Sequence record: PX645697.1
DNA from: a phage
Length of the DNA stretch: 64,000 nt
Strand: one strand, 5' to 3'
Part shown: in pieces, positions 6,126 through 49,589 of the stretch
How positions within the stretch are numbered: position 1 is the first letter of the stretch
Layout: each line of letters starts with the position of its first letter
Position numbers and translations under genes: made by a program
Notes under the pieces: model-generated
Told to the model about the DNA's origin: nothing
Database searches by the model: none
What the model saw: the letters and a program-made list of their open reading frames with translations, nothing else

Positions 6126-7210
6126 TGCCACAAGATAATTATATTGACCCGAACGATTTTAAATCTTTCCTCCAACTGGATGACCTGAAAGGTTCTTTCA
6201 AAGAAGAACTCGGTCGATTAGAATCTGAACAAGAACCAGAAGTGGACATTGACGATGAGTTCCCGGAAAAAGACGGTGACGATTTCGACTTTGATACCGA
6301 CCTTCTCGGTGAAAGCGATGAGCTTAAGTTCGAAGATGAAGATGGTTGGGAAGATCATGACGAGGAAGGCGAAGTCGAACAAGATGAGGACGAATCTGAT
6401 GAATCAGACGAAAGCTCTGAAGCAGATGAGGAAGACTCAAGCGATGCAGGATATGAAGATGATTCTGCTGACGGTGAAGGTGAAGTCTTTGATGTAGACT
6501 ACGAAACCGTTATCACCCTTCCTGATGGACGTGAGATGACTATTGAAGAACTTTCTAATGGCTATCTTACTGGTGCTGATATGACAGAACGAGAATCAAC
6601 TCTTCAGCGTCACATGGAAGCATTTGAGGAACGTGTAGTAGGTTTGAAGGATGTATTAGAATTAGCGTCTTTAGAAGCAGACCGAGTAATTGAAGATTAC
6701 AACGGTTTTGATTGGGACAAGCTTGCAGTAGAAGATCCTCAAGCATATGTTGAAAACAAACGTTTCCTAGAGAAGTACACAGCTCGTCGTAACCAGCTTG
6801 AACAGGCTCAGGCCCGTATTAAGCAGGAAGCAGCAGCTAAAGAGCAGGAAGCTTTCCAAGCCAAGAGCATTGAATGTGTTAATATTCTGAAACGTGAGAT
6901 TCCAAATTGGGATGAAAACTTATATCAAAACTTAATGCAATACGCAATTGACTTAGGTGCTACTGAAGAAGAAGTATTGAAGGAAAACCGTCCGTCTATT
7001 TTCCTAGCTCTCCACAAAGCATACCAATTTGATAAAGGTAAGCAACAGGTGATGGCTAAGATTAAACGTCCCGGTGCTCCACGCAAGGTTGTGAAGTCTG
7101 ATGCTGCAAAGTCTCGTACTTCCAATAAGCCAGACAACGCTAAGGTTGCCAAGGCATTCGCAGAGGGTCGCGTTAGTCACGAAGACGCATTCAAATTCCT
7201 CGTAGATTAA
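6125..7210 (+). CDS. putative scaffolding protein
   Basis: 361 aa with extremely acidic D/E-rich N-terminal half and helical C-terminal half, located directly upstream of the capsid gene. Confidence 0.55.
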   Translation: MPQDNYIDPNDFKSFLQLDDLKGSFKEELGRLESEQEPEVDIDDEFPEKDGDDFDFDTDLLGESDELKFEDEDGWEDHDEEGEVEQDEDESDESDESSEADEEDSSDAGYEDDSADGEGEVFDVDYETVITLPDGREMTIEELSNGYLTGADMTERESTLQRHMEAFEERVVGLKDVLELASLEADRVIEDYNGFDWDKLAVEDPQAYVENKRFLEKYTARRNQLEQAQARIKQEAAAKEQEAFQAKSIECVNILKREIPNWDENLYQNLMQYAIDLGATEEEVLKENRPSIFLALHKAYQFDKGKQQVMAKIKRPGAPRKVVKSDAAKSRTSNKPDNAKVAKAFAEGRVSHEDAFKFLVD

Positions 7211-7251
7211 TCGACAAATTAATTATTTAATAGTATAGGAGCTAACATAAC

Positions 7252-8313
7252 ATGGCTAATCCAACTTTATTTGTATCGTATGACCAGAATGGTAAAAAAC
7301 TTTCTTTTGCTAACTGGATTTCTGTTCTGTCCCCTCAGGATACTCCGTTCGTATCTATGACCGGTAAAGAGTCTATCAACCAGACTATCTTTAGCTGGCA
7401 GACCGATGCACTGGCAAGCGTTGATGGTAATAACGCACACGTCGAAGGCTCTCGTGCTGAAGACGGCGAAATGAAACCGACTGTTATCAAGTCTAACGTT
7501 ACTCAGATTCTGCGTAAGGTTGTTCGTGTTTCTGACACTGCTAACACCACCGCTAACTACGGTCGTGGTCGTGAACTGATGTATCAGCTGGAGAAGAAAG
7601 GTAAAGAGATCAAGCGTGACCTCGAGAAAATCCTTCTGTCCGGTCAGGCTCGTACCGACGTTCTGGCTGACCAGTATCTGACTAACTCCGCAGCTGATCC
7701 GACTCAGATTGGTAAGAACGACACCCATGCAGCTCGTAAGACTGGTGCATTCCAGTTCCTGTGTGCTCACGGCGGTCTGACTGGTGGCGTTGTTGACAAA
7801 ACCAAGAATGGTCCTGCTGACCCAGATACCGGTGCTGTAACTGTTAAAGTTGCACAGAACGCTTCTAACCCGGCTACTAACATCGGTTTTGATGAAGCAG
7901 ATATCTTTGATATGACTCTGCAACTTTACACCGCTGGTTCTGAAGCAGATATCATCATGATTAACCCGGCTCATGCTAAGATCTTCGCTGGTCTGCAAGA
8001 AAACACTCAGGGTTCACGTAAGCGTATCTTTGAGAACACCAAGCAGTTCATCTACGAAGTTAACAGCATCACTGACCCGCTGGGCCAGAGCTACAAAATC
8101 ATCGTTAACCGTTGGATGCCTACCGATGCAGTTTACTTCTTCCGTAGCGCTGACTGGACCCAGATGGTTCTGCGTGCTCCGAAACGTACTGAACTGGCAA
8201 AAGATGGTTCTTACGAGAAGTGGATGATTGAGATGGAAGTTGGTCTGCGTCACCGCAACCCGTATGCTTCCGGTGTTCTGTTCACTGCTGCGGGAAAGGC
8301 AGTAGCGGCGTAA
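7252..8313 (+). CDS. major capsid protein
   Basis: 353 aa following scaffold; strongly optimised codon usage (CGT, CTG, GGT, AAC); SD TAGGAG. Confidence 0.7.
   Translation: MANPTLFVSYDQNGKKLSFANWISVLSPQDTPFVSMTGKESINQTIFSWQTDALASVDGNNAHVEGSRAEDGEMKPTVIKSNVTQILRKVVRVSDTANTTANYGRGRELMYQLEKKGKEIKRDLEKILLSGQARTDVLADQYLTNSAADPTQIGKNDTHAARKTGAFQFLCAHGGLTGGVVDKTKNGPADPDTGAVTVKVAQNASNPATNIGFDEADIFDMTLQLYTAGSEADIIMINPAHAKIFAGLQENTQGSRKRIFENTKQFIYEVNSITDPLGQSYKIIVNRWMPTDAVYFFRSADWTQMVLRAPKRTELAKDGSYEKWMIEMEVGLRHRNPYASGVLFTAAGKAVAA
8292..8298 (+). promoter_or_regulatory. candidate -1 programmed ribosomal frameshift slippery heptamer G_GGA_AAG
   Basis: X XXY YYZ heptamer in capsid frame four codons before its stop; -1 frame is open from 8232 to 8840 and encodes a Big_2 Ig-like domain. 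Confidence 0.55.
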
Positions 8314-8897: not shown

Positions 8898-8906
8898 TAA
8901 TGTATA
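8898..8906 (+). promoter_or_regulatory. TAATGTATA promoter-like motif (candidate phage sigma factor promoter)
   Basis: exact 9-mer 34 nt upstream of ATG 8940, directly after a terminator. Confidence 0.5.
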
Positions 8907-44533: not shown

Positions 44534-45190
44534 TTAACTCTCCAAAGTTTTCTTCAGAGCTGCCCACGAGATTGGGTAGATCTTAGCCATCTCTTCGTCT
44601 ACGGATTTAGCAAACACTCGAACTTCATATTGAGCGTGAGATGAGAGTCGCTGACGACACAGCTCAAACCAGCCATACAAAGAACCAGTCCACACCCACT
44701 CAGTGATCATCCCCTGAGGAAGAACAAATCGAGCTTGCTCTGGTGCAATAAATTCAATCAACTTGTCATATGCTGCTAGAGAATCTTCATATGCATCGTT
44801 AATCAGCATTAATGCTTCATCTCGCTCTCCGTCGATGAGTTGAATCCCTGAACCTGCATGGAGGTCCGCAGGTCTCGCAAAAATCTCTTTAGGGATGAAG
44901 ACTTCAACTGCTCCATCTTTATACCGCCGGGACATTTCGTTCCACGAGAATCCAACCTGATGCTTGCCCAACTGTCTCGCAATTGCGATAGGTGCTTTGC
45001 ATCGGAAACTGACTTGTGGGTGTCGGAATGGAGTAACATGCTTCTCTCTTGCGAGGAAATTGATGAGACGTTCATCACGTTCATTTAAATCACCTTCACG
45101 GGTTACACCAAAGGAAACTCGAGCTGCGTTTACTACAGTTTTATCCGAGCCTAAAAACTCTACCAGTTCTGCTTTAAGCTGATCATTCAT
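44534..45190 (-). CDS. ThyX-like protein (flavin-dependent thymidylate synthase family) with divergent signature
   Basis: AARVSFG N-terminal motif and KHQVGFSWNEMSRRY in place of the canonical RHR-x7-S motif; start refined to ATG 45190 with GGAGAG SD. Confidence 0.55.
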   Translation of the reverse strand: MNDQLKAELVEFLGSDKTVVNAARVSFGVTREGDLNERDERLINFLAREKHVTPFRHPQVSFRCKAPIAIARQLGKHQVGFSWNEMSRRYKDGAVEVFIPKEIFARPADLHAGSGIQLIDGERDEALMLINDAYEDSLAAYDKLIEFIAPEQARFVLPQGMITEWVWTGSLYGWFELCRQRLSSHAQYEVRVFAKSVDEEMAKIYPISWAALKKTLES

Positions 45191-45635
45191 TACTTTTTCT
45201 CTCCATCCATGAAGCAAGTTTTCTAACTTCCTCTATCGTTATATCACTTTTTAACCTATTTACTCTTCTTGACAAAAAGGTCACATTCCCTTGAACGTAC
45301 CCTTTGTCTGGAATAAATCTGTCAAGCTCAGCTAAGTCATCAGAACCTTTTTCACCATCTATCTTTATAGGCGTATCTAATACCGGACAGAATCCAGTCC
45401 AAATAGACTCTAGATACTCAGGAGTTAAATCAAAAGGTACGTTATCCCTTTTTGCTTTTATTTTAGTTCTGACATTCTTTAATTTAAAAGGTTGTGTCCT
45501 TTTATATTTTAGATATCTAGCTCTTTGACTTTCGTTGGCGCAAGAATAACAATAAGGCCGTAACCTACCAGACCTATCATTACGCACAGGAAATTGATCT
45601 ATGTCCAAATCCTTTTCACAGGAATTACAGATCAT
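45183..45635 (-). CDS. zinc-finger / degenerate HNH-like nuclease-fold protein
   Basis: 150 aa; N-terminal CNSCEK...CYSCAN; C-terminal DRFIPDKGYVQGNVTFLSRRVNRLK resembles HNH with His replaced. Confidence 0.4.
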   Translation of the reverse strand: MICNSCEKDLDIDQFPVRNDRSGRLRPYCYSCANESQRARYLKYKRTQPFKLKNVRTKIKAKRDNVPFDLTPEYLESIWTGFCPVLDTPIKIDGEKGSDDLAELDRFIPDKGYVQGNVTFLSRRVNRLKSDITIEEVRKLASWMERKSNE

Positions 45636-45700: not shown

Positions 45701-45901
45701 TTAATATTCTTTTACACAATAAACCACTAAGGTTCCTTGATCTGTTAATATTGACTTATGTAAGCTGACATTACTATAAAACTTTGGAGCTATCTTAAGG
45801 GCTTTCTTAAAACGACGAGCTTCTTTACGAGTAGCAAAGTGCTCTGTTACAGGAACTTTGTCGTTGTGTAGATAGTAAACTACTGTCCAATATTTTTTCA
45901 T
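45701..45901 (-). CDS. small protein, member of a 5-copy paralogous family (TRKEARR.KK motif)
   Basis: MKKYWTVVYY...ATRKEARRFKK...; family-wide N-terminal MKK.W, central [TS]R.EAR, C-terminal aromatic end. Confidence 0.5.
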   Translation of the reverse strand: MKKYWTVVYYLHNDKVPVTEHFATRKEARRFKKALKIAPKFYSNVSLHKSILTDQGTLVVYCVKEY

Positions 45902-46176
45902 AATTTAATACCCAAAGCAGTTACTAAGAAAGCTTTCAGGTTTGCTTCGGTCTGCATACCAGATAAGCTATAATGTGCATCGCTGTTACGATTAGGCACA
46001 ACGAAAGCAGGGATACTTCGTACACCATACTTAACAGCTTGTTCACGACCATCACCTTCAAGGATGTTAATCTCTTCTACTTCTACATCAAACTCCTTAA
46101 CAACCTTCTCAAAGGTAGGAGCCATTGCTTTACATGGAGCACACTGATCACTATAAAACTTAATTACTTTACTCAT
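45898..46176 (-). CDS. thioredoxin
   Basis: MSKVIKFYSDQCAPCK with CxxC active site; AAGGAA SD; start refined from 46230. Confidence 0.7.
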   Translation of the reverse strand: MSKVIKFYSDQCAPCKAMAPTFEKVVKEFDVEVEEINILEGDGREQAVKYGVRSIPAFVVPNRNSDAHYSLSGMQTEANLKAFLVTALGIKL

Positions 46177-46366: not shown

Positions 46367-46552
46367 TTATAGCATACAAAGAATAATAACAAGAGGTAGT
46401 GTTATAGCAAAATGTACCAGAACAACACTACCTAGCTTGATAGCTTTAACATCCTCTTCTGCTGGGTTTTCTTTAATTGCTAAATTTCGAGCTTTATATA
46501 TAACAGTACCAACTATTAACGACCACACGGCCCACACAATCAGTGAAATCAT
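46367..46552 (-). CDS. small two-TM membrane protein
   Basis: 61 aa; MISLIVWAVWSLIVGTVIY ... VVLVHFAITLPLVIILCML. Confidence 0.45.
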   Translation of the reverse strand: MISLIVWAVWSLIVGTVIYKARNLAIKENPAEEDVKAIKLGSVVLVHFAITLPLVIILCML

Positions 46553-46561
46553 ATCAAATCC

Positions 46562-46741
46562 TTATGCAGTCAGGAGGTGAAGCAGGAATGGGATAACAAC
46601 AGCTACGATAACCATGATAGTTGATGCTGTTTGAATCTCACCTTTCTTATCAGGGGTTTCTTCAATAAGCTTACCAGAAGCCCAATAAATACCACCACCA
46701 ATAAAGATAGCCCAAATACCCCATACGATTGCTGATAACAT
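46562..46741 (-). CDS. small two-TM membrane protein, paralog of 46367..46552
   Basis: hand-translated 59 aa MLSAIVWGIWAIFIGGGIYW...TIMVIVAVVIPFLLHLLTA. Confidence 0.4.
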   Translation of the reverse strand: MLSAIVWGIWAIFIGGGIYWASGKLIEETPDKKGEIQTASTIMVIVAVVIPFLLHLLTA

Positions 46742-46802
46742 ATATCTATATCCTTATAAATAAGTTCGCCCCACCTCGGGTTAGGAGACAGGGCGGAGGT
46801 TT

Positions 46803-47366
46803 TTAGTAAGACACATCACCACTTGAGTGGGACATGTTGCTCTTGACAAAGTAGCAATACTTGCCAAGACCTTCATTAATTTCTTGAAGCATACTCTGAT
46901 CAACTGGATAAGTGACTAAATCACCATCAAACTCATCCATCTTCTCAATAATACACAACAAGGTCATGCACATATCAGAGAGCATTCCATCCATGTCTAG
47001 ATCAGCATTACCCTCTGAGAACCAAGCATGAGAGAGGTAGTTAGCTGCTGTAGCGTCCACTTTAACACAGTGGTAACGCATACGTTCAGCAATACGATCT
47101 CCTACCTGTCGTGCGTAATCTTCCAGCTCGTCAAACATACCATGAACACCCTGAAATCCTGCACCAGAGACGTTCCAGTGGTAGTTTTTAGCTTTAATAT
47201 GCAAGAGTTCCATGTTAGCTTGTAAGCAGCTTAGGATGTGTTCTAGGTTGTTTCCGCTAATCATGCCCTGCATAGTTTCAAGGCGAGAGATTGAAAGCTC
47301 AGATCGGTCTAACATGTTATATTCTGCACGACCGATTTCAGGTAAATCAAAGACATTCTTATGCAT
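46803..47366 (-). CDS. Dps/ferritin-like protein
   Basis: HIKAKNYHWNVSGAGFQGVHGMFDELEDYARQ resembles the Dps helix A/B signature; start refined to ATG 47366. Confidence 0.5.
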   Translation of the reverse strand: MHKNVFDLPEIGRAEYNMLDRSELSISRLETMQGMISGNNLEHILSCLQANMELLHIKAKNYHWNVSGAGFQGVHGMFDELEDYARQVGDRIAERMRYHCVKVDATAANYLSHAWFSEGNADLDMDGMLSDMCMTLLCIIEKMDEFDGDLVTYPVDQSMLQEINEGLGKYCYFVKSNMSHSSGDVSY

Positions 47367-47688
47367 TTGGGTTATCTCCATCAAGTTCAACTGAATTAGC
47401 AACGTTACGTTCGATGTTTGCCATCACTTGCTGCGTTATGACAATGCAGTTCTGTGGGTCAACTGATTTAGAACGCCCCATTTCAGGGTCATACACTTTA
47501 ACTCGCTTAGCAGTTGAACCTGTAACCTGAAGAACCTTCAACAGATATCCCTGATTACCAATAGACCATGCAACAACATCACGATTCTTGATGAATCGAC
47601 CAAGCATATCACGATGATAGAACTGCTGCATAACCTTTGATTTATTAATCTCTTCGGCTGGCGGAGCCACTTTACTCAAATCTAACAT
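47359..47688 (-). CDS. hypothetical protein
   Basis: 109-aa ORF with SD GGAGAGAG; promoter-like motif upstream. Confidence 0.5.
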   Translation of the reverse strand: MLDLSKVAPPAEEINKSKVMQQFYHRDMLGRFIKNRDVVAWSIGNQGYLLKVLQVTGSTAKRVKVYDPEMGRSKSVDPQNCIVITQQVMANIERNVANSVELDGDNPNA

Positions 47689-47727
47689 TTCACTCTCTCC
47701 TGTTTAACACAATATTCTTATACTGTA

Positions 47728-47736
47728 TATACATTT
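47728..47736 (-). promoter_or_regulatory. AAATGTATA promoter-like motif (one-mismatch variant of TAATGTATA)
   Basis: on - strand 40 nt upstream of ATG 47688; same spacing as exact copies. Confidence 0.4.
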
Positions 47737-47760
47737 GAGAGTGATCATATCTACTACCAA

Positions 47761-47970
47761 TCAGTAGTAAATTACTTTAGACATAAAAGAACCAGTGTTA
47801 GGGTCTTCATACCAGCGATGTATGTCAGCGCTTTTTACTATTGTGCCCAGAGTCTTCAACTGTTTCTTAGCAATACGAGCCTCTTTGCGAGTGTCAAACA
47901 ATTTGATGCTATCTTTTCTCATATGTTGCTCAAGATCCCAAACAACATGAATAGCCCACATCTTTTTCAT
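47761..47970 (-). CDS. small protein, paralogous family member
   Basis: MKKMWAIHVV...DTRKEARIAKK...VIYY. Confidence 0.5.
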   Translation of the reverse strand: MKKMWAIHVVWDLEQHMRKDSIKLFDTRKEARIAKKQLKTLGTIVKSADIHRWYEDPNTGSFMSKVIYY

Positions 47971-48185
47971 TAGTAATGTACCTTTCCGCTGATATAAATA
48001 CGGCCTGAGGTATACTCATAGCCCTTGAGAATCTTAATAGAGATAAGATATCCAGTGTGTAATTCACTGAACGATTTCTTAAGCCTACGTGCATCTTCTC
48101 GTGTTTTCTGGTAGGCCATGGTCACCCCCCCACTTGTCCACTCTGTCTTAACTAACCAAATTCTTTTCATAAGACCTGCCCTCAT
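47970..48185 (-). CDS. small protein, paralogous family member
   Basis: ...KRIWLVK...KTREDARRLKK...KVHY. Confidence 0.5.
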   Translation of the reverse strand: MRAGLMKRIWLVKTEWTSGGVTMAYQKTREDARRLKKSFSELHTGYLISIKILKGYEYTSGRIYISGKVHY

Positions 48186-48397
48186 TAGTAGTACACCTTG
48201 CTTCCAGCCATGAACGCCCCTGTCGAGCTTATCATGGCTTTGCTGATAGTAACTTTCTTACACCGTAAACATACCTTCCAGTTCTTTTTACAGATTCGAG
48301 CTTCTTGTCGAGTGTTACAAAAAATAGCCGAAGATATTTCTTGGGTGTTGTTATCATAAACACGAACACACCACTTTTTCATTGTTCCAAACTCCAC
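48185..48397 (-). CDS. small protein, paralogous family member
   Basis: ...MKKWCVRVY...NTRQEARICKK...KVYY. Confidence 0.5.
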   Translation of the reverse strand: MEFGTMKKWCVRVYDNNTQEISSAIFCNTRQEARICKKNWKVCLRCKKVTISKAMISSTGAFMAGSKVYY

Positions 48398-48603: not shown

Positions 48604-48852
48604 TCAGTAATATATCTTTTCATTGATAACCAAAGTGTCGTAATTCTCTGTCTGAGAGTGGACCGCTTTGTGAATAGTAGCTACTACATCAACAGCATCT
48701 TTAAAGCGTCGATAATGGTTTATGGTTACTTTTTTGAGACGTCTAGCCTCCTCTCTTGAGGGAAGCTGAGTTTTTAGAACAGTGATTTTACCTGTTGAAA
48801 TCTTGGTAATCACAACTTTCAGTGCCCAACAATCCAGAGCAGCCTTTTTCAT
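48604..48852 (-). CDS. small protein, paralogous family member
   Basis: MKKAALDCWALKVV...PSREEARRLKK...KIYY. Confidence 0.5.
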   Translation of the reverse strand: MKKAALDCWALKVVITKISTGKITVLKTQLPSREEARRLKKVTINHYRRFKDAVDVVATIHKAVHSQTENYDTLVINEKIYY

Positions 48853-49055: not shown

Positions 49056-49589
49056 TTACACACCTTTAGATGCAACTACACCTTCAGAGTTATTATAACG
49101 ACCCTTCACTGCATAGGAATGTTCCCCTGCATGAGAGTGCTCAAACATCACCATCTGACCAACACGCATACCAGCACGAACTCGTAAGCTATGATGCTTG
49201 GTTACGTTATGGAACTCAAATGTCAGCTTACTGCTGTTAAACCCTGCGTCTGCCCACCCGGCGTGGAGGTGGTTCAAACCACAACGAGCCATAGATGAAC
49301 GTAGGACAAACAGACTTGAGATGTTATCTGGAAGATTAAACTCCTCCATGGAGTGAGCCAAGAAGAACTGACCCGGAGTGATAACCAAACCCTCTTCAGG
49401 AATCTTTACTTCCTTCCACTGAAGATTCTCTTTCGCATCAATATCAACGATGCCATCAGCCTGTTCTTCAACAAGGATAGTATCACCAATACGGATATCC
49501 ACACTAGCAGCGTTAACATATTTATGCTCCGCATTCAGATAGCCATTGTCAATTACATCGTGCAGTTCAATACTTCCTAGTAAACTCAT
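49056..49589 (-). CDS. dCTP deaminase / dUTPase-family protein
   Basis: 177 aa; LRSSMARCGL matches the dCTP deaminase GRSSLARLGL signature. Confidence 0.65.
   Translation of the reverse strand: MSLLGSIELHDVIDNGYLNAEHKYVNAASVDIRIGDTILVEEQADGIVDIDAKENLQWKEVKIPEEGLVITPGQFFLAHSMEEFNLPDNISSLFVLRSSMARCGLNHLHAGWADAGFNSSKLTFEFHNVTKHHSLRVRAGMRVGQMVMFEHSHAGEHSYAVKGRYNNSEGVVASKGV

Follow-up and report, generated by a model that had tools for sequence, protein, structure and literature searches.

A Dps-family mini-ferritin gene with an intact ferroxidase centre and a coupled partner gene in a Kuravirus-type prolate podophage

We analysed a 64,000-nucleotide stretch of phage DNA (sequence record PX645697.1, hereafter the window, with its first letter as position 1) and found that the gene at 46803..47366 on the minus strand, here called dps, encodes a Dps-family mini-ferritin of 187 amino acids (aa; 187 codons plus stop, 21.27 kDa), an assignment drawn from the open reading frame (ORF), Pfam, PHROG, and PDB sequence matches, an AlphaFold2 (AF2) model, and Foldseek. 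In our best explanation, which blends identity with role and which we hold to be probable, the product is a catalytically competent Dps mini-ferritin that protects replicating phage DNA through Fe2+/H2O2 detoxification. Taken separately, it is very likely that the protein is a functional Dps-type ferroxidase, and the scales are about level on whether its physiological role is Fe2+/H2O2 detoxification during phage DNA replication. At the DNA level the dps region shares 92-96% identity with ~80 Escherichia and Shigella phages, whose record taxonomy is Gordonclarkvirinae / Kuravirus, the phiEco32-like podophages with prolate "C3" heads. The window is that of a Kuravirus-type (phiEco32-like) prolate podophage, a coliphage; an N4-like assignment was rejected because of the relatives' record taxonomy.

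A preliminary description of this ORF, made from the sequence, had called the product Dps/ferritin-like on the strength of a short helix signature. The signature is present (KNYHWNVSGAGFQGVHGMFDE, residues 60-80 of the 187-aa ORF), and the assignment is now supported by Pfam, PDB sequence matches, profile searches, the predicted fold, and the metal ligands. Ferritin (PF00210) is the sole Pfam match of the protein; its 31 bits exceed the gathering score of 24.5, over residues 55-107 only. PHROG 3636 matches end to end (E 2.7e-54). A phmmer search against the PDB retrieved ~55 Dps chains and almost nothing besides, with the best matches to Mycobacterium smegmatis Dps2 (MsDps2, E 3e-9), Bacillus subtilis MrgA, and Bacillus anthracis Dlp-2; the Dps of the host, E. 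coli, was matched only at E 0.13. When a profile was built from 16 family members, it retrieved >7800 Dps proteins in one database and 3353 cluster representatives at E<=1e-3 in another, with residues ~40-177, and so the whole domain, aligned. One candidate relative was discarded: P0124, a metagenomic protein of 1156 aa that matched the ferroxidase segment weakly 20 times over, is a tandem DNA repeat (unit ~58 aa) read as protein, and its matches are spurious. The NCBIfam equivalog models for Dps scored weakly, at 34, 31, and 18 bits where the cut-offs are 114-300 (34 against 114 for the best). The phage protein has no equivalog among the curated cellular Dps proteins, and its membership of the family rests on Pfam, profiles, and fold.

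The AF2 model, which was built from the family alignment and is of a monomer, has a mean predicted local confidence (pLDDT) of 79, rising to 85-96 in the core. It is the four-helix bundle that had been proposed as a check on the Dps/ferritin-like assignment, with predicted helices A (to residue 65), B (72-98), C (125-150), and D (154-177). A short BC helix (107-112) lies in the B-C crossover, which sets Dps apart from the 24-mer ferritins, and the fifth, E, helix is absent. All 50 of the 50 best Foldseek matches in the PDB are Dps subunits, with template modelling (TM) scores up to 0.90-0.91 at a root-mean-square deviation (rmsd) of 1.4 A (Dlp-2, MrgA, and Staphylococcus aureus Dps). From the TM score of 0.9 to subunits of dodecameric Dps, the modelled protein would be expected to assemble as a dodecamer. 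We rejected a classical 24-mer ferritin or bacterioferritin, since the fifth helix is missing, the BC helix is present, the ligands lie at the inter-subunit positions of Dps, and the top 50 folds are all Dps.

The ferroxidase-centre segment occupies codons 63-94 (47085..47180, minus strand) and reads H63-W64...H75...D79...D90...E94, followed by R95. As a reference we used E. coli Dps, the dps product of MG1655. Because a direct BLASTP or hhalign comparison to this protein covers helices A-B only, the second half was placed by multiple alignment and structure. In the alignment the phage residues correspond one to one to those of E. coli Dps (H63 to H51, W64 to W52, H75 to H63, D79 to D67, D90 to D78, and E94 to E82), so that all five ligands and the adjacent tryptophan, the second check that had been proposed, are accounted for. 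None of the six varies in the 16-sequence alignment, and they recur with identical spacing in 49/49 phage-clade clusters spanning ~30-97% identity; R95 is likewise invariant in the phage clade and, judging from alignment offsets, would correspond to R73 of MsDps2, the residue mutated in PDB 5WW9. A comparison of the 147 core codons to those of phage ECBP2, from another genus, gave 17 nonsynonymous and 55 synonymous codon changes, and the core is therefore under strong purifying selection.

The start of dps deserves comment, since a shorter model is in circulation. The ATG lies at 47366 with a GGAG 9 nt upstream, and the start overlaps the stop of the upstream ORF by 8 nt (ATGCATAA). In the RefSeq annotation of phage NJ01 the dps coding sequence (6804-7274, equivalent to window positions 46803-47273) is truncated to 156 aa and starts at the internal Met32, before which we found no Shine-Dalgarno sequence. 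Two motifs of the N-terminal 40 codons, MHNNxFDLP and SxxRLExM, are kept in homologs down to 48% identity in the 16-sequence alignment. The mass quoted for the ortholog SU10 CDS67 is 21.2 kDa (PMC4281155), which agrees with the long form. Because the upstream 31 codons and the ribosome-binding site are conserved, because Met32 is without a Shine-Dalgarno sequence, and because of the SU10 mass, we consider the 187-aa start correct and the Met32 start wrong, and the 187-aa start should supersede the truncated NJ01 model. A longer, TTG-initiated reading (to 47402) was also considered and set aside as a merely mechanical ORF.

Within Kuravirus, the orthologs (SU10 CDS67, the phiEco32 protein, and NJ01 NJ01_081) are 96-98% identical over 187 aa and have the same neighbours, with essentially no difference from the protein described here. 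The Proteus phage Privateer protein (QIN94861) is 41% identical over the core and keeps the same upstream partner and a thioredoxin. Between the phage clade and cellular Dps the scores show a clear gap (125 against 82 bits), and the clade has only 7 representatives at E<=1e-30. Representative genomes of 185,579 species were searched for close cellular relatives of the clade; none was found, the matches being just ordinary Dps proteins over helices A-B, and no donor lineage could be named. By these comparisons, the phage Dps is an old, phage-restricted lineage and no recent capture from the host.

Among solved structures, MsDps2 (PDB 2Z90 and 4M35) is the best sequence match, at ~25% identity and a TM score of 0.77. 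It has the HW...H...D...D..AER ligand pattern in common with the phage protein. It differs in being a cellular, nucleoid-associated, DNA-binding protein with no long tails, in contrast to the acidic-to-neutral N-terminal extension of 40 aa in the phage form, and the second half of the phage protein is far more divergent from it. The closest superpositions (TM 0.90, rmsd 1.4 A, ~142-144 columns) are to B. anthracis Dlp-2 (1JIG), B. subtilis MrgA (2CHP), and Listeria innocua Dps, which are acidic like the phage protein; these are cellular and stress-induced, are ~145-156 aa long, and have neither a long N-terminal extension nor a coupled partner. Dlp-2 and L. innocua Dps protect by iron/peroxide chemistry without binding DNA (PMC10536872), and the same is predicted for the phage Dps. 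E. coli Dps belongs to the same family, with 39% identity over 41 residues only.

The N-terminal extension (codons 1-40, 47247..47366, minus strand) is found in the Gordonclarkvirinae-type Dps only. It carries the two motifs mentioned above and is missing from the homologs in Privateer, SE131, and pSal-SNUABM-01. The Privateer and Salmonella 7-11-like forms have a short Arg/Lys-rich N-terminus instead (net +3 in the Privateer and SE131 homologs). In the window the extension holds 1 Lys, 3 Arg, and 6 Asp/Glu (net -2), the C-terminal tail has a net charge of -1, and the whole subunit has an isoelectric point (pI) of 4.73 and a net charge of -15. In contrast, the tail of E. coli Dps is net +3 with 5 Lys, and its subunit has a pI of 5.72 and a net charge of -4. 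Over the 40 codons of the extension there are 18 nonsynonymous and 8 synonymous changes relative to ECBP2, so that the extension is fast evolving outside the two motifs; its pLDDT is below 60 in the AF2 model, and the two short motifs look like interaction motifs on a flexible arm. Cys and Met are also more numerous in the phage protein (5 Cys, 14 Met) than in E. coli Dps (0 Cys, 4 Met).

These charges bear on the further suggestion of the preliminary description that the protein binds or compacts DNA. E. coli Dps binds DNA via its Lys-rich N-terminus (PMC10536872), and the Kuravirus form, with a single Lys in a tail of net charge -2, does not have the Lys/Arg-rich tail of E. coli-type DNA-binding Dps. 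Such a tail is not what makes a protein a Dps: no DNA is bound by L. innocua Dps, streptococcal Dpr, the two B. anthracis proteins, or Agrobacterium tumefaciens Dps, and several of them protect regardless (PMC10536872). Since its N-tail is not basic and the protein is very acidic, we regard E. coli-type DNA binding as doubtful for the Kuravirus form; on its sequence, both the suggestion and the label "DNA binding protein" are unsupported for this form.

The gene directly upstream of dps, here called the partner (phrog_10984; 47359..47688, minus strand), encodes 109 aa with a pI of 8.8, and its stop is the one that overlaps the dps start by 8 nt. No Pfam match was found for the 109-aa product. 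Its model is a small five-stranded beta-barrel with helices at the flanks (pLDDT 64), and a fold search yielded nothing significant, the matches being Tudor, KOW, and SH3-like folds at E>=7.6e-3 (TM score ~0.4 for the match of lowest E). From this model the partner can be described only as a generic SH3/Tudor/KOW-like small barrel. In Privateer a homolog of the partner (39% identity, E 6e-18) lies directly 5' of dps and overlaps it, and the partner also adjoins dps in Aeromonas, Cronobacter, and other Proteus phages; it stands 1.4 kb upstream of dps in Salmonella phage SE131, beside thioredoxin, and 1.7 kb upstream in PKM.Hi.22.6. In total, 131 phage records carry the partner, all from prolate podophage groups with this Dps clade, and in most of them it adjoins dps. 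The partner was absent from the Dps-encoding phages of Streptomyces, Synechococcus, and Listeria. It is better conserved than Dps, and the two co-occur on metagenomic contigs. Neither protein matched anything in the PADLOC defence library. The partner is a concrete new lead on the function of the phage Dps.

Sequence 5' of the partner holds a candidate promoter region for the pair, located by a scan and, for its last element, by reading the letters (47726..47771, minus strand); it is composed of a sigma70-like -35 element TTTACT (47771-47766) and -10 element TATGAT (47749-47744), followed by AATGTATATA (47735-47726), which fits the phage-sigma motif tAATGTATAtA. NJ01 and ECBP2 have this block unchanged. 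According to the SU10 paper, the middle unit opens with a good sigma70 promoter, which lies upstream of CDS68; the paper assigns the motif tAATGTATAtA to middle/late promoters and places dps in the middle class with a dual promoter. It also counts CDS65 (thioredoxin), CDS67 (Dps), and CDS68 with the few middle genes common to all five C3 phages then known. The exact octamer TAATGTAT, the core of the phage-sigma (gp36-type) motif, occurs 7 times in the window against 2.6 expected, at 8898, 20699, 22947, 25933, and 35835 on the plus strand and 35764 and 41966 on the minus strand. These sites are candidate middle/late promoters, and none is near dps.

At the pair's other end, a GC-rich, terminator-like stem-loop with a weak U tract (46767..46795, minus strand; 11 pairs, 7 of them GC) begins 8 nt past the dps stop. 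A 69-nt stretch that includes a second hairpin folds at -18.5 kcal/mol (z -2.6). In ECBP2 the stem is invariant and the loop has diverged; the terminator list of the SU10 authors omits a stem-loop after dps. As read from the DNA, the partner and dps appear to form a promoter-proximal, translationally coupled pair that is ended by a conserved hairpin and heads the middle transcription unit, a block of genes for replication and nucleotide metabolism.

Four genes downstream of dps lies a phage thioredoxin gene (45898..46176, minus strand; PF00085 E 1.8e-13, PHROG 22) whose CxxC motif is CAPC. Thioredoxin is within 1-5 genes of dps in Kuravirus, Suseptimavirus, Privateervirus, and Moazamivirus; the order of genes was compared with ev_rybdy3, Privateer, SE131, and ECBP2. 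In each genus compared, the cluster is set among genes for ThyX, dCTP deaminase, primase/helicase, and DNA polymerase.

With respect to mechanism, the cellular Dps literature supplies the model. Dps forms a 12-mer shell with an outer diameter of 90 A and an inner diameter of 45 A, Fe2+ enters through acidic, ferritin-like three-fold channels, and at twelve inter-subunit di-iron sites each H2O2 oxidises two Fe2+; ~500 Fe are stored per cage, and the net effect is to suppress Fenton chemistry (PMC10536872). By analogy, the ligands, fold, and purifying selection of the phage Dps argue that it would carry out the same iron chemistry. Twelve subunits would form a hollow shell of ~9 nm; Fe2+ would enter via acidic three-fold pores and be held at di-iron sites on the two-fold interfaces, with H63, H75, and D79 from one subunit and D90 and E94 from the other; and there H2O2 would oxidise it in pairs of ions, the product being kept as a ferric core, which would remove both Fenton reagents. 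Replicating phage DNA and the replication enzymes would thereby be spared hydroxyl-radical damage. It is the timing (a middle gene) and the neighbours that suggest a service to replicating phage DNA in particular, and the acidity of the tails and surface that suggests that the Kuravirus Dps probably protects by chemistry and not by coating DNA.

That lytic infection can impose an oxidative type of stress is shown by Yersinia ruckeri infected with phage YerA41, in which host dps, catalase, and peroxiredoxin are among the genes most strongly induced early in infection. According to the SU10 paper, an inhibitor of sigma70 RNA polymerase is among the gene products of these phages. Since such inhibition would cost the cell its own response, a phage would stand to gain from carrying a Dps itself, and the benefit should be greatest after the phage has shut down host transcription and hence the host OxyR/Dps response.

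Several points weigh against this account of protection by iron and peroxide chemistry inside the cell. The acidity of the three-fold pore is matched only in part: the C-D turn is flanked by D144, E145, D147, D149, and the conserved D156, of which only D156 aligns with the D141-D146 stretch of E. coli Dps, and within the clade positions 144-149 are variable. Dodecamer assembly, iron oxidation, and the lack of DNA binding are all properties that we infer, the model being of a monomer. In the literature searched we found no functional work, biochemical or genetic, on any phage Dps. An acidic tail does not preclude DNA binding, because the closest relative of solved structure, MsDps2, needs no charged tails to bind DNA, and the basic N-termini of the short-tailed phage relatives (net +3) mean that DNA binding may be ancestral in the phage clade. 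Finally, the Privateer homolog was detected by mass spectrometry (MS) in particles purified on caesium chloride (CsCl) and counted as one of ten virion-associated proteins (PMC7881722), which a purely cytoplasmic role does not explain unless dense, iron-loaded dodecamers band together with the phage.

The points about DNA lead to an alternative in which the Dps cage, alone or with the basic partner, binds phage DNA and shields or condenses it, as the label "DNA binding protein" would imply; the shielding could extend to restriction enzymes. Besides the DNA binding of MsDps2 and E. coli Dps and the basic N-termini of the relatives, this reading can draw on the coupled partner, which is mildly basic and resembles a class (Tudor/KOW/PWWP/SH3-like) that often binds nucleic acids, and on the Gordonclarkvirinae being unusually resistant to restriction-modification. 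We nevertheless consider it unlikely. The Kuravirus tails and subunit have the net negative charges given above, the N-tail evolves fast outside its two short motifs, and many Dps proteins manage without DNA binding; the fold match of the partner is not significant; and the product of a middle gene would be absent as the DNA first enters the cell.

The Privateer detection raises a second alternative, namely that Dps lies inside the prolate capsid or is attached to it, where it would guard the packaged genome or be delivered to the next host. The SU10 homolog was likewise detected by MS in a phage preparation, with peptides covering 35.8% of CDS67 (PMC4281155), dps is conserved in all prolate (C3) podophage groups, and its promoter bears the phage-sigma motif that late promoters also use. 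However, the SU10 sample of 2014 was precipitated with polyethylene glycol only and contained DNA polymerase and thioredoxin as well, and for these reasons the detection speaks for expression and not for packaging. A cryo-electron microscopy and MS study of SU10 names gp20-24 as the head-internal ejection proteins and does not mention Dps in its text or supplements. The gene lies in the replication module and not in the structural module, and a 9-nm cage is too big for the tail channel. Dense, iron-loaded cages could co-band with phage in CsCl, and this is the account of the Privateer result that we prefer. Virion association seems to us highly improbable.

A third alternative keeps the cage and abandons the iron chemistry: the protein would serve as a scaffold, acting through its N-terminal motif and the partner, or as a mimic that disturbs host Dps or iron regulation. 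The two conserved short motifs of the Kuravirus extension, the obligate linkage of the partner gene to dps, and the unusual richness in Cys and Met could all be accommodated in this way. What makes it scarcely credible is that the five metal ligands, W64, and R95 are invariant across the 49 clusters; such invariance is otherwise hard to explain and argues for selection for catalysis. Mixed oligomers with host Dps are also unlikely, because identity to the E. coli protein extends over so few residues.

It can also be imagined that Dps, the small beta-barrel, and thioredoxin make up a three-gene module, a hallmark of the prolate (C3) podophages with a task beyond antioxidant chemistry, in which the cage joins phage DNA or the virion and shields the genome. 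The cage would then be recruited through the Kuravirus N-terminal motifs or through the partner protein. We judge this highly unlikely; if true, it would help explain both the restriction resistance of the Gordonclarkvirinae and the presence of Dps in CsCl-purified Privateer particles.

Other features of the surrounding region are recorded here as observations in their own right. Five paralogous small ORFs (~65-82 aa), all on the minus strand, flank the dps cluster at 45701-45901, 47761-47970, 47970-48185, 48185-48397, and 48604-48852. They share the pattern MKK.W...T(R/K)xEAR(R)xKK...Y(Y), both members tested match phrog_4939, and they constitute an expanded family of small proteins of the early/middle region. 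Directly 3' of dps, at 46367-46552 and 46562-46741 (minus strand), are tandem paralogs of ~60 aa that resemble proteins with two transmembrane helices; both match phrog_9296 and are conserved in ECBP2 and ev_rybdy3. An ORF at 45183-45635 (minus strand), between the thioredoxin-side genes and ThyX, is HNH / endonuclease VII-like (phrog_3322, E 1.5e-28). It overlaps the longest ThyX frame, and in ev_rybdy3 thioredoxin adjoins thymidylate synthase; the ORF looks like a mobile homing-endonuclease insertion. The dCTP deaminase gene is at 49056-49589 (minus strand), and in relatives a nucleotidyltransferase gene lies beside it. The BASEL paper proposes that the dCTP deaminase/nucleotidyltransferase pair may underlie a DNA modification that explains restriction resistance.

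We would like to note that the identity of the protein is not new, as GenBank and two papers (PMC4281155, PMC7881722) already annotate its orthologs as DPS-domain or Dps-family proteins. GenBank labels for the orthologs nonetheless vary, from "DNA binding protein" and "ferric iron binding protein" to "hypothetical protein" and "integrase". The label "integrase" or "putative integrase" stands on the orthologs in IME267, 172-1, ES17, EcoN5, IMEP8, KBNP1711, XT73, and others. No recombinase family was matched in Pfam, NCBIfam, or PHROGs, Ferritin being the sole Pfam match, and this label was rejected; it is evidently a misannotation that has spread among records of strictly lytic phages. "Dps-family ferroxidase" or "mini-ferritin" is preferable to "DNA binding protein" as a name, and "integrase" should certainly not be used.

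The identification itself thus changes little, given that related genomes and two papers already have it. What is added here is the demonstration of an intact whole domain with its ligands, the non-basic extension of the Kuravirus form, the partner gene, the anatomy of the transcription unit, and the annotation errors. The value of the case is that it would offer a clean example of a strictly lytic phage with an iron/peroxide detoxification protein of its own. That an old, phage-restricted clade has kept every catalytic residue argues that these phages are under real selection from oxidative or iron stress as they infect.

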